In this document: piece after piece, positions 25,210 through 29,250 of the stretch
How the letters are laid out: each line of letters starts with the position of its first letter
Position numbering within the stretch: the stretch's first letter is position 1
From: an uncultured Gammaproteobacteria bacterium
GTDB taxonomy: Bacteria > Patescibacteriota > Patescibacteriia > UBA1558 > GWA2-36-10
DNA length: 64,000 nt
Direction: 5' to 3'
NCBI GenBank assembly: GCA_964645825.1
Contig: CAZXZY010000001.1
Span: forward strand, 17,362-81,361
Position numbers and translations under genes: made by a program
The notes under the pieces: generated by a model
What the model was told of the DNA's origin: nothing
Seen by the model: only the letters and a program-made list of their open reading frames with translations
The model's database searches: none

Positions 25210-25248
25210 AAAAAGTCAACCCTATTAACGGTCTGTCAATAGGGTTGA
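25210..25248 (-). terminator. intrinsic terminator after secF
   Basis: 10-bp stem caaccctatt / aatagggttg plus U-run. Confidence 0.55.
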
Positions 25249-25273: not shown

Positions 25274-26173
25274 TTAAGCTTTTTTGTTCCAAAGAGATAA
25301 TAGTGGCGAAGCAACGAAGATTGAGGAATAAGTACCAATAATGACACCTAAAATCAAGGCTAAAACGAAGTATTTAATACTCTCTCCGCCAAATATATAG
25401 ATAGCTAGCAATACAAATAGGGTTGTTACCGAGGTATTTATAGATCGGACAATAGTTTGGTTCACGCTAAGGTTGACAATTTCATCAAAAGCTTGGTTTT
25501 GTACTTTAAATAGGTTTTCACGAGTTCTATCAAAAGTAACTATGGTATCATGAATGGAAAAACCTAAAATAGTAAGCAAAGCAGTTACGAATAAGGTATC
25601 AATCTCAACATTGGCCACTTGACCCAAAATTGCAAATATACCAGTAACAATTAAAATATCGTGTGCCAAAGCAATGATTGCTGAAATACCGTATTTCCAA
25701 GAAGCAACTGGCTTAGAAACCTGTCTAAAAGCATAAGCAATATAAAAGACAATAAATAATAACACTATAACAATGGCTTCAATGGCCTTGCTTTTTAATT
25801 CTTGACCAATAGTTGGCCCAATAGATTCAAATCTTAATTCAGTAAGAGCCGCAGCTTGTTCATCAATTTGAATATTTTTTAGATTACTTAAAATCTTTTG
25901 ATGCACATCTTCACTGACGTCTTCAAAACGTAAAAAGAAATTTTGTTCTCCAGTAGGCTGAATACGGATACTTTGTAATTCTAAGGGCGTTAGCGACTCC
26001 TCTACTTGAGCGATACTTGGTCGGGTTGTTTCATAGGATACTTCTAATAAACTACCACCAGTAAAATCAATGCCTAGTTTTAAACCAAAAATGGCTAGCG
26101 CGGCAATGCTCAGTGCTACTAAAATACCAGAAAAAGTAAACCAGTATTTTTTATTTTTAATAATGTTATACAT
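25274..26173 (-). CDS. secF: protein translocase subunit SecF
   Basis: SecD/SecF family with 6 TM segments; follows secD. Confidence 0.9.
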   Translation of the reverse strand: MYNIIKNKKYWFTFSGILVALSIAALAIFGLKLGIDFTGGSLLEVSYETTRPSIAQVEESLTPLELQSIRIQPTGEQNFFLRFEDVSEDVHQKILSNLKNIQIDEQAAALTELRFESIGPTIGQELKSKAIEAIVIVLLFIVFYIAYAFRQVSKPVASWKYGISAIIALAHDILIVTGIFAILGQVANVEIDTLFVTALLTILGFSIHDTIVTFDRTRENLFKVQNQAFDEIVNLSVNQTIVRSINTSVTTLFVLLAIYIFGGESIKYFVLALILGVIIGTYSSIFVASPLLSLWNKKA

Positions 26174-26174
26174 A

Positions 26175-27842
26175 TTATTGATTATTCTTTTCTTTATTTA
26201 TACCAAATAGCCATAACTTATCCTCTATTTTACGTTTTACAATCATGCGTAAAAAAGTACGTGTCACAGTAATAGCAGAGAACATAGAGATGATAATACC
26301 AATCGCTAAAGTGATGGCAAACCCTTTGACAACAGATGTTCCAAACCAAGCTAAGATCAAACAAGTAATAATGGATGAAATATTTGAATCACGAATAGAT
26401 GTCCAAGCTCTTTGAAAACCATTTTCAACAGATGATGTTAAACTACGGCCTTCGTATAATTCTTCTTTTGTTCTTTCGAAGATAAGAATATTAGCATCTA
26501 CTGCCATACCAACCGACAAAATAAATCCAGCTACACCAGCTAAAGTCATGGTCACTGGGATCATTTCAAATAAAGCTAGTGTGACCAAAGAATACACAGC
26601 TAAAGCCAAAACCGCAATCAATCCTGGTAATCTATAATAAATTAGCATAAACAATGCTGCTGCAAGTAAGCCAATAATACCAGCTATTAAACTTTTTTCT
26701 ACTGAAATATCACCCAAAGAAGCACCAACTGTTTGCTGGCTGATTAATTCGATTGGTACTGGCAAAGCACCTGAATTTAAATCTCTAACCATATCTTTGG
26801 CTTCTTTTATACCAAAACTACCAGAAATAACAGCTCGCCCATCTTTGATTGCTTCTTGAACAACTGGCTCAGAAATTTTGAATCCATCCAAAAAAATAGC
26901 CACTGGTTTTCCAACATTAGCCTCAGTAATAGAAGCAAAGAGATCTTTTCCTTCGCTATCAAATTCTAATCCAATCAATGGAGCGTTGGTATTTTGATCA
27001 AATTCTAAGTTTGCTCGTTTAAGATGACGACCACCTAAATCAGTATTTTCCCAATTGATATTAGCATAATCAGCGTTTGGTTTTTGAATTAAGATGTGAG
27101 CGGCTCGTATTTCTGTCTCACCAGAATCATTTAAACGTTCTTCAAGTTTTTTTATAATATGATAACCAAATTGTGACTCAACTAGTTCTGGAGAAATTTC
27201 TCCAATTTTTAAATCTTCAAAAATAGCTTGTTCAAATTCTGGTACAAATTGTCCACGTGTTACCCATGGTAATTCACCACCATCAACGGACGAACCCAAA
27301 TCTTCACTAAATTCTTGAGCAAGCGCTGCAAAATCCTCTCCTGCTAAAACCTGTTCTAACAAACCTTGCGCTGTATCTTTTTCAGGATTTAATATTTCTT
27401 CTTCTGTTTCTTCAACAATTGGAGCGCCGACAGTTTTGAATTCTAATAAAGGTGTAGCGCCAATCATTTCAATAGCTTCACTTACATCTTGGACGCCAGC
27501 TAGCTCAACAATGATACGATAGTGATTTCCACTATAATTTGTTTGAATAGTTGGTTCAGATACACCATAAGCGTTTACACGACGCTCAATAACGTCTCTG
27601 ACGCCCTCCACGGACTCTTTTTTGTCTGCATCGGCAAAGTTATCAACGTTAGCTTCATAGACCAGATGAGTGCCGCCTTGTAAATCTAAACCTAAATGTA
27701 TTCTAAATTTAGAAAACCAGCCAGAATTACTTGGCCAGACCACAAGAGCGCTAAAAATTGCCAAAATCATGATACCAGCAAAAGCTAGACGTACTTGGTT
27801 TTTAGTAATAGCTACTTTTCGAGGTAATTTAGTTTTTGTCAT
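26175..27842 (-). CDS. secD: protein translocase subunit SecD with inserted parvulin-like PPIase domain
   Basis: SecD TM1 and periplasmic head. Residues about 160-255 read GEDFAALAQEFSEDLGSSVDGGELPWVTRGQFVPEFEQAIFEDLKIGEISPELVESQFGYHIIKK, a PpiC/parvulin signature. C-terminal 6-TM SecD core follows. Confidence 0.85.
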   Translation of the reverse strand: MTKTKLPRKVAITKNQVRLAFAGIMILAIFSALVVWPSNSGWFSKFRIHLGLDLQGGTHLVYEANVDNFADADKKESVEGVRDVIERRVNAYGVSEPTIQTNYSGNHYRIIVELAGVQDVSEAIEMIGATPLLEFKTVGAPIVEETEEEILNPEKDTAQGLLEQVLAGEDFAALAQEFSEDLGSSVDGGELPWVTRGQFVPEFEQAIFEDLKIGEISPELVESQFGYHIIKKLEERLNDSGETEIRAAHILIQKPNADYANINWENTDLGGRHLKRANLEFDQNTNAPLIGLEFDSEGKDLFASITEANVGKPVAIFLDGFKISEPVVQEAIKDGRAVISGSFGIKEAKDMVRDLNSGALPVPIELISQQTVGASLGDISVEKSLIAGIIGLLAAALFMLIYYRLPGLIAVLALAVYSLVTLALFEMIPVTMTLAGVAGFILSVGMAVDANILIFERTKEELYEGRSLTSSVENGFQRAWTSIRDSNISSIITCLILAWFGTSVVKGFAITLAIGIIISMFSAITVTRTFLRMIVKRKIEDKLWLFGINKEKNNQ

Positions 27843-27910
27843 ATAAATTATCTTTTTTAAATATGCGGATATTTTAGCATAAATCTCAATTTTTTCAAGT
27901 CCAAATATGC

Positions 27911-28736: not shown

Positions 28737-28772
28737 TCAAAAAGAAAAGCCGCGATCGTGCATACGATCGCG
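28737..28772 (-). terminator. GC-rich intrinsic terminator of the small acidic ORF
   Basis: ccgcgatcg-tgcata-cgatcgcgg, then U-run on the minus strand. Confidence 0.5.
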
Positions 28773-28788
28773 GACTTCAAGTCTTTGA

Positions 28789-29043
28789 TTAGACATGTGC
28801 CTGTTGACAGAGCTCATCTATCTCAGCATCCAAAACTGTCCATTCAGCTGCTGTTAGATGAACGGTGTCATCGATGTCTTCTACGGCTTCTGGCCCCTGC
28901 TCTTTCATGTTAGATGCGCCAAGTTTGCATAATCTCTCCCAGAATGCAATTCTGGCCGCATCATCTGGACTGACATTGATCAGTCTCTGCATTGCGTGCT
29001 CCATGAATTTGCTTACAGTACCTCCTACCATGTTTCTGTCCAT
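28789..29043 (-). CDS. hypothetical acidic 84-aa protein, compositionally atypical (about 47% GC)
   Basis: Intact ORF with its own terminator. GC content is far above the roughly 31% background. No recognised motif. Confidence 0.4.
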   Translation of the reverse strand: MDRNMVGGTVSKFMEHAMQRLINVSPDDAARIAFWERLCKLGASNMKEQGPEAVEDIDDTVHLTAAEWTVLDAEIDELCQQAHV

Positions 29044-29096
29044 TTTCTCGCCCTTTCGTTTTAGTGTGTCAAGAACTAAGATTTTTAATATTTACC

Positions 29097-29176: not shown

Positions 29177-29250
29177 TCGGGGATCGTCTAATGGTAGGAC
29201 GACTGGTTCTGGTCCAGTTAATCGGGGTTCGACTCCCTGTCCCCGAGCCA
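29177..29250 (+). tRNA. tRNA-Gln (anticodon CUG), CCA encoded
   Basis: Manual cloverleaf: acceptor TCGGGGA/TCCCCGA, D-arm GTCT-AATGGTA-GGAC, anticodon arm ACTGG-TTCTGGT-CCAGT, T-arm CGGGG-TTCGACT-CCCTG, discriminator G, CCA. Confidence 0.8.

Follow-up and report, generated by a model that had tools for sequence, protein, structure and literature searches.

An apparently circularly permuted parvulin domain within the P1 region of SecD in bacteria of the candidate phyla radiation

How an exported chain is handed over from the Sec channel to the folding factors outside the membrane is a question under active study, for which PpiD-YfgM, SurA at the holotranslocon and the SecDF-foldase dome of Mycoplasma described in 2025 are the current examples. 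This question is also raised by the secD gene found in a 64,000-nucleotide stretch of DNA (contig CAZXZY010000001.1, positions 17,362 to 81,361; the whole stretch is called the window below), for which an earlier note had proposed that a parvulin-like segment lies inside the SecD protein itself. In that note, the strand AAHILI, which carries the His residue and normally opens the parvulin fold, was said to follow the segment instead of preceding it, and a circular permutation was suggested. What is this segment, where exactly is it located in SecD, and could it serve as a foldase for chains leaving the translocon? The analysis presented here makes it likely that SecD of this bacterium of the candidate phyla radiation (CPR) carries a complete, circularly permuted parvulin peptidyl-prolyl isomerase (PPIase) on two flexible linkers, where it would meet the chains leaving SecYEG.

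The presence of a parvulin segment in the extracytoplasmic P1 region of SecD was confirmed by the Pfam search, in which both rotamase models scored well above their gathering cut-offs: Rotamase_3 (PF13616) matched amino acids 154–234 with 82.7 bits against a cut-off of 22.5 (E = 3.7e-23), and Rotamase (PF00639) gave 70.3 bits against a cut-off of 21.7 (E = 2.9e-19). Together, these matches span residues 152–234, between SecD_1st (residues 79–138) and SecDF_P1_head (PF22599, residues 267–362), and the same stretch is matched by the PrsA and SurA models of NCBIfam and by parvulin chains from the PDB. The match is far beyond chance, and the same architecture, including the insert, was found in each of the 120 best homologues of the window SecD. 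Structure prediction with AlphaFold folded the module confidently, giving the four-stranded antiparallel sheet packed by four helices that is typical of parvulins.

The segment is not ordinary P1 sequence. SecDF of Thermus thermophilus aligns to residues 14–140 and 270–546 of the window SecD, with 40 of its own residues in between, and SecD of Escherichia coli aligns up to residue 141 and from residue 268, with 32 residues in between, at a place where the window SecD has 126–129 residues. Moreover, there are relatives in which the block is cleanly missing, and one of them, P0278, which was found by a search with the divergent fusion protein P0254, is 81% identical to the latter. The insert-less proteins run from LEFKEQNPLPE straight into ETDSIDFENWQPWKYTGL (alignment A4), which corresponds to the removal of residues 144–254 from the window SecD. 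The AAHILI-type strand is gone together with the rest of the insert in these proteins, and, because the deleted block includes it, the strand is part of the insert rather than of the P1 head; W264, with which the first strand of the P1 head starts, is invariant even in the insert-less SecD proteins.

Thus, the insert lies outside the membrane, on the connector by which the last N-terminal strand of the P1 base leads over to the strand that opens the P1 head. Pfam, the alignments, the structural model and the insert-less relatives agree on this base-to-head connector, and the initial location of the segment within the P1 head itself has to be corrected accordingly. The positions proposed at that time, 27080–27365 on the minus strand, correspond to residues 160–255 of SecD and read GLLEQVLAGEDF...SQFGYHIIKKLEERLNDSGETEIRAAHILIQKP; the parvulin is indeed there, but its N-terminal helix is clipped, as the insert extends over 27081–27413. 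Both borders are formed by flexible linkers, at about residues 139–150 and 254–263, and the only internal segments of low confidence in the full-length model (residues 143–150 and 258–261) coincide with them. In the C-terminal linker, the predicted local distance difference test score (pLDDT) falls below 50 at residues 258–261, and both the sequence and the length of this linker differ among homologues.

The AAHILI strand does follow the parvulin segment, as had been noticed: it occupies residues 247–252, 19–24 residues past the strand GYHII. That the domain is circularly permuted, with α1 first and the His strand IRAAHILIQ (residues 245–253) after β4 as a hairpin, is supported by profile scores, by the AlphaFold model, by the lengths of fold-search alignments and by conservation. 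In the full-length protein, Rotamase_3 is covered over positions 36–114 of its 116 positions, and its N-terminal part, which describes β1, finds no match in the usual place; the canonical order, with a His-bearing β1 at the N-terminus, was not found. The native insert scored 87.9 bits on Rotamase_3 (profile positions 36–115). When SGETEIRAAHILIQKPNADYAN was placed before α1, the score rose to 95.1 bits with coverage of positions 14–115, and coverage of PF00639 then extended over positions 1–94, so the de-permuted insert gained 7–10 bits with full profile coverage. Control constructs with the strand reversed (85.6 bits, with the old coverage) or removed (84.9 bits) scored below the native insert.

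The same test was extended to the family, in that 58 fusions were scored with a hidden Markov model (HMM) representing 51 canonical parvulins from other phyla. De-permuting gained 8.4 ± 1.5 bits in 58 of the 58 fusions and moved the start of the match from HMM position 24 to position 3, and the reversed strand gave no gain in this set. Since the profile is unmatched before position 36, the strand lies behind β4 and the restored order scores higher, the insert is regarded as a circular permutant and not as a canonical parvulin.

The AlphaFold models, both for the full-length protein and for the domain only, contain a long hairpin of strands 226–237 and 243–253, and the order of the elements is helices 153–166, 171–178, 182–185 and 201–210, then β4, then the extra strand. 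The domain-only model had a mean pLDDT of 86.9 (94–97 in the core) and a predicted template modelling score (pTM) of 0.76; for the full-length model, the mean pLDDT was 78.8 and the pTM was 0.46. When the domain-only model served as the query of a fold search, the alignments to canonical parvulins (PrsA, SurA P1/P2, PEB4, PpiC and Par10) spanned only 79–90 residues, which is what one would expect of a last strand that has no counterpart at its place in the sequence. Furthermore, the strand is kept where the hairpin loop lengthens: the distance between the two His residues is 34–38 residues in L011, L014 and P0098, against 20–21 in most fusions.

The residues of a parvulin active site are present in the insert and conserved. 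We take D181 (within SED), H249, H228 and S223 to be the hydrogen-bonded tetrad and L191, F199 and F203 to line the hydrophobic proline pocket, these positions being assigned by eye against the sequences of Par10, PrsA, Par14 and Pin1. Conservation was assessed in 58 single-insert fusions with SecD core identity down to 47% and about 50% sequence divergence, and the counts are given in Table 1. The earlier idea of a translocon-fused foldase is plausible and is in keeping with these intact residues.

The architecture of the fusion recurs in hundreds of clusters, drawn from assemblies of NCBI, JGI, ENA and Logan, the named sources being Komeili-, Nomura-, Buchanan-, Kuenen- and Falkowbacteria and the "Parcubacteria/Patescibacteria group"; the species-representative genomes contain at least 14 SecD fusion loci with a G+C content from 0.30 to 0.61, and all but four of the best 120 homologues of the divergent P0254 carry the insert. 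When the 150 best cluster representatives with a match to the insert were considered, SecD fusions were recognised only among CPR-like sequences. In the insert search of the representative library, proteins with several parvulin domains prevailed, because their scores add up and exceed those of single domains. Ten long matches (738–1042 amino acids) were considered as candidate SecDF fusions, and none of them proved to be one.

Across the 58 fusions (1653 pairs), the identity of the insert correlated with that of the SecD core (r = 0.72). Because insert identity tracks core identity, this pattern fits one old insertion with vertical inheritance and purifying selection; the insert has co-diverged with the rest of SecD across several Parcubacteria lineages. 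Six of the fusion loci (L002, L004, L005, L006, L007 and L010) lie in bins that their submitters named Gammaproteobacteria, Lysobacteraceae, Bathyarchaeia or Bdellovibrionales. Except for L002, their SecD cores are 56–61% identical to that of the window, and since this resembles the identity of the Patescibacteria-labelled loci, these bin names are probably taxonomy or binning errors.

Several variants of the architecture were observed. SecD proteins of 673–726 amino acids (P0381, P0308, P0293 and P0380; e.g., from Falkowbacteria; alignment A4) have a doubled insert at the same site, in the order α1A...β4A (no His), His strand, α1B...β4B (His) and a last strand that is mostly without His. Judging from which His residues are retained, one of the two domains would be active and the other silent, and the doubled insert is possibly nested instead of being a plain tandem. 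In P0172 (348 amino acids, 8 contigs), a signal peptide of lipoprotein type precedes a SecD P1-like region that includes the parvulin insert and the P1 head, and there is no transmembrane domain within its 348 residues; this protein could be a P1 paralogue with a lipid anchor, or its gene call could be truncated. In the clade of P0254, P0274 and P0278, the P1 head has an extra loop, DTNEDGKIDGNDVYAP, which resembles the DxDxDG calcium-binding motif (columns about 495–510 of alignment A4) and is missing from the window SecD.

The permuted order is not limited to SecD. CPR encode PrsA-like proteins consisting of a transmembrane anchor, a SurA_N-like domain and a parvulin with 45–49% identity to the insert of SecD. 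Of 67 single-domain homologues of this type (P0392–P0474), 63 have the His strand 16–29 residues past β4; these 63 proteins have no upstream His strand and fewer than 85 residues left to the C-terminus. Examples are P0411 (Buchananbacteria), P0430, P0431 and P0474 (Saccharibacteria) and the loci L026 (3293–4393), L038 (3083–4360) and L046 (3242–4342), and the named sources include Buchananbacteria, Parcubacteria and Saccharibacteria. The Pfam alignments of some CPR PrsA-like proteins reach profile positions 12–17 over a probable helix; this helix is not regarded as an upstream β1, although it leaves some doubt in these cases.

A further protein, P0127 (456 amino acids, from a Logan contig), is membrane-anchored and is not a SecD, and its permuted parvulin is 54% identical to the SecD insert. 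Its module stands directly after the transmembrane helix with no room for an upstream β1, and its C-terminal region of about 240 residues has no Pfam match. Since the CPR PrsA-like proteins show the same permuted order, the permuted parvulin is a pre-existing module, which was probably copied into SecD from the PrsA-like membrane-anchored foldases of CPR.

Outside CPR, PrsA-like proteins of Pyrinomonadaceae (Acidobacteriota; L015, 3188–4663 and 4735–6174, L016, L020 and L037) have the helix first and the His strand last, the latter being followed by nothing but a short stretch of helix and a tail of low complexity. CPR may not be the only bacteria with a permuted parvulin. A motif-based "permuted" call for SurA-like proteins of Bacteroidota, Gemmatimonadota and Fusobacteria was withdrawn; these are tandem parvulins in which the first β1 has no His.

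The most likely function of the SecD insert, as far as it can be inferred, would be that of a tethered foldase or holdase for chains leaving SecYEG. The P1 head of SecDF reportedly binds unfolded chains as they emerge from SecYEG, and the proton gradient is said to drive its swing between conformations, by which the chain is drawn out and kept from sliding back. Because the parvulin is hung, on tethers of about 10 residues, at the hinge of this head that grips unfolded chains, it would meet each emerging chain and would catalyse prolyl isomerisation and/or hold the chain. The insert would then be a covalent, built-in equivalent of the separate translocon-associated PpiD, PrsA and Mycoplasma Mdp proteins.

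Several points weigh against a tethered, catalytically competent and permuted PPIase. The PPIase activity and the contact with substrates are putative, as they are deduced from the conserved residues and from what the P1 head is known to do. In PpiD and in SurA P1, the parvulin domain is reportedly silent in catalysis, and the two His residues of Pin1 are reportedly not strictly needed for it, so that conserved residues are no proof of enzyme activity. One Buchananbacteria fusion (L012, locus 3376–5211) has a degenerate insert with Glu in place of His249 and with GGDLG lost, its identity being 0.39 in the insert against 0.65 in the core; P0318 has an insert of the same length that gives no Rotamase match, and P0278, P0315 and P0367 have none. 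In view of this secondary loss or decay, the insert is dispensable in some lineages, and the domain is useful rather than indispensable. The β1 strand is central to the parvulin sheet, and strand 243–253 would occupy its canonical slot according to HMM scores, secondary structure and aligned lengths. Likewise, the full-length model, with its pTM of 0.46, leaves the predicted domain unplaced relative to the head, the base and SecY.

The fusion may also be redundant with the stand-alone PrsA-like foldases of CPR. That it might compensate for the lack of a stand-alone PrsA or SurA, as the earlier note had suggested, was not supported at the level of lineages, where CPR encode membrane-anchored PrsA-like parvulins; since such foldases exist in CPR, the fusion is not just a stand-in for an absent PrsA. 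Both the SecD fusion and stand-alone PrsA-like proteins occur in Buchananbacteria and Parcubacteria, and no second parvulin was found within the 64-kb window.

A wider reading, offered tentatively and in our opinion rather doubtful, is that permuted parvulins form a sub-family of their own, so far overlooked, which would provide CPR with their standard foldase module outside the cytoplasm, be it in PrsA-like proteins, in SecD or in further membrane proteins. SecD would then be a single-polypeptide "pull-and-fold" device rather than a chaperone on a passive tether: via the base-head connector, the P1 head, swinging under the proton gradient, would be coupled mechanically to the capture of the chain and to prolyl isomerisation.

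The main alternative to the tethered PPIase, which we nevertheless consider unlikely, is a silent binding module after the model of the parvulin domains of PpiD and SurA P1: the insert would enlarge the gripping surface of the P1 head and act as a holdase or anti-backsliding clamp, with no isomerisation. This does not agree well with the full tetrad retained in 57–58 of the 58 single-insert fusions at about 50% divergence, whereas the known silent parvulins have reportedly lost tetrad residues; moreover, the de-permuted domain scores like the catalytic PrsA and PpiC sequences.

It is very improbable that the parvulin acts on the machine itself, isomerising a proline in the SecD hinge, in SecF, in SecY or in a partner, and thereby gating or timing the swing of the P1 head. 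Its position exactly on one of the two base-head connectors and the conserved prolines in the flanking linkers (e.g., P255 in KPNAD) are in line with such a role, but no finding points to a target of this kind, the hinge works without the insert in a relative that keeps a very similar P1 (81% identity), and the occurrence of the same module in PrsA-like chaperones and in the unrelated P0127 favours a general, substrate-directed role. Scarcely credible is a truncated parvulin that lacks β1, with AAHILI as part of the P1 head, or else an assembly or gene-calling artefact: the P1_head match does start only at profile position 19, before which an N-terminal part of the head could have gone unassigned, but insert-less SecD is devoid of an AAHILI-type strand, the alignment of canonical SecD begins no earlier than W264, the strand scores as parvulin β1 in 58 of 58 fusions and its reverse does not, H249 was invariant in the first alignment, the module recurs in the non-SecD P0127 and in CPR PrsA-like proteins, and the identical protein was recorded on 16 independent contigs (NCBI, JGI, ENA and Logan) within an architecture present in hundreds of clusters.

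The host protein is a SecD. It scored 389.4 bits on the NCBIfam model TIGR01129, whose cut-off is 244.4, with positions 1–397 of the model covered, and it has the Pfam domains Sec_GG, SecD_1st, SecDF_P1_head and SecD_SecF_C. Its best solved relative is the SecDF of T. thermophilus (PDB 3aqp, E = 6e-74), and Foldseek with the full-length AlphaFold model returned SecDF structures (5yhf/5xan/3aqp, E = 3e-23); this search gave SecDF and pumps of the resistance-nodulation-division (RND) superfamily only and was uninformative on the insert. An extracytoplasmic P1 base and head, located between the first and second transmembrane segments, are recognised by PF21760, PF22599 and Foldseek, the base part being aligned to T. 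thermophilus SecDF up to residue 120 and the head from its residue 161 and from residue 327 of E. coli SecD. The multi-transmembrane domain has the expected Asp: AVDAN is aligned to AVDGN of T. thermophilus SecDF, and D449 is invariant in 44 fusions. The partner SecF with its D...DR motif is encoded next to SecD, and SecF-type matches were also obtained, in the NCBIfam and PDB searches, for the homologous transmembrane region. We take D449 and the SecF motif to be equivalent to D340/R671 of T. thermophilus. The closest named relatives of the window SecD are from Nomurabacteria, Parcubacteria and Komeilibacteria, which places the genome in the CPR (Patescibacteria).

Table 1 Features of the secD-secF locus and conserved residues of the parvulin insert (positions are those of the window)
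Feature	SecD residues	Window positions	Strand	Basis or remark
secD, 555 aa	1–555	26175..27842, stop included	minus	Open reading frame (ORF) list
P1 base, N-terminal part, last strand TPLLEFKTV	79–138	27429..27608	minus	PF21760 SecD_1st, E = 1e-18
Whole insert: N-linker and permuted parvulin module	144–254 (111 aa)	27081..27413	minus	Block missing in P0278, P0315 and P0367
Parvulin core α1-α2-α3-β2-α4-β3-β4	151–237	27132..27392	minus	Rotamase_3; AlphaFold secondary structure
Turn NDSGE joining β4 to permuted β1	238–242	27117–27131	minus	
Permuted β1 strand TEIRAAHILIQ, with H249	243–253	27084..27116	minus	HMM tests; AlphaFold strand 243–253
C-terminal linker KPNADYANIN, back into SecD	254–263	27054..27083	minus	Low pLDDT, variable
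P1 head, first strand W264-ENTDL conserved	264–362	26757..27053	minus	PF22599 SecDF_P1_head, E = 4.8e-26
SecD transmembrane domain, AVDAN motif (D449, nt 26496–26498)	364–536	26235..26753	minus	PF02355
secF, 299 aa, DTIVTFDR motif		25274..26173	minus	Starts 1 nt past the secD stop; ORF and translation
Promoter-like site upstream of secD, TTGAAA-16-TAAAAT with TG		27871..27898	minus	Consensus scan alone, weak
Terminator-like hairpin just past secF, 14-bp stem and T run		25216..25248	minus	Consensus scan alone, weak
D181	181			58/58 fusions
S/T223	223			58/58 fusions
H228	228			58/58 fusions
H249	249			57/58 fusions; invariant in first alignment
L191	191			55/58 fusions
F203	203			56/58 fusions

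Two other elements were observed near secD. The region 28750–29050 has 45–50% G+C within a window of 34% G+C and contains an ORF of 84 amino acids (28789..29043, minus strand), which ends at a strong terminator-like hairpin (28773–28750); no Rfam match was found for this region, and its RNA fold z-score is −3.3. A tRNA-Gln gene (anticodon CTG) is located at 29177–29250 on the plus strand, flanked by the methyltransferase-like gene that precedes secD and by an ORF for a small membrane protein.

Automated pipelines already tag such fusions with both Pfam domains, and the source records call them just SecD. A literature search found no paper on the SecD-parvulin fusion or on permuted parvulins, including the stand-alone CPR foldases, which is an absence of evidence only, as most subscription journals lay outside its coverage. 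The covalent fusion across several Parcubacteria lineages provides independent "Rosetta stone" evidence for a partnership of SecDF and a parvulin foldase at one spot, and it offers a simple single-gene system in which the coupling of SecDF to a foldase can be tested. The permutation matters for domain annotation, since some of the domain escapes the Pfam models, and for the re-wiring of a fold for insertion. For the biology of CPR, the fusion would be an economical route by which tiny genomes could fold the surface proteins needed in epibiotic life.

The window SecD has the hallmarks of the solved SecDF proteins (T. thermophilus 3AQP/5YHF, Deinococcus radiodurans 5XAM/5XAN and E. coli SecD 5MG3), namely the GG motif, the P1 base and head, the RND-type domain of six transmembrane segments, the AVD(A/G)N aspartate and an adjacent secF, but it carries about 90–95 extra residues as a parvulin domain where the solved proteins have a loop of 32–40 residues. 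PrsA, the lipoprotein foldase of monoderms (Bacillus subtilis 4WO7 and 1ZK6; Bacillus anthracis 6VJ6), has its parvulin in the canonical order within a SurA_N-type domain, whereas the window parvulin is permuted, has SecD as its host and is accompanied by no SurA_N domain: Pfam found no match to PF13624, PF13623 or PF09312 in the window SecD. The stand-alone PrsA-like proteins of CPR do match these SurA_N-type models, and they share with SecD the module of α1...β4, hairpin and His strand, placed behind an N-terminal transmembrane anchor and not within SecD. At most, the SecD insert works like the PrsA/SurA/PpiD foldases, and it is not a member of this group. The essential periplasmic PPIase of Bacteroides fragilis (8HM3/8HM4, the target of BfUbb) is a soluble, SurA-like chaperone with two parvulin domains, in which the strand RHILL, by homology to SurA, would be β1 of the second domain; judging from the aligned length, it could pair with the preceding β4.

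Parvulins are also found, as separate proteins, at the outer face of the Sec machinery. PpiD-YfgM binds SecYEG (PMC9643414), and SurA contacts the Sec machinery (PMC9987972). In Mycoplasma pneumoniae, which has no cell wall, PrsA-like parvulin lipoproteins, Mdp444 among them, crosslink to SecD, and these lipoproteins form a dome over the translocon (10.1101/2024.09.05.611430; 10.1101/2025.04.25.650208). The PpiD-YfgM complex of E. coli (8ZHT) and the dome of Mdp444/436/489 in M. pneumoniae thus present a parvulin to emerging chains at the outer Sec face, as the SecD insert would; in these systems, however, the parvulins are separate, non-covalent partners, whereas that of the window is covalently inserted within SecD.

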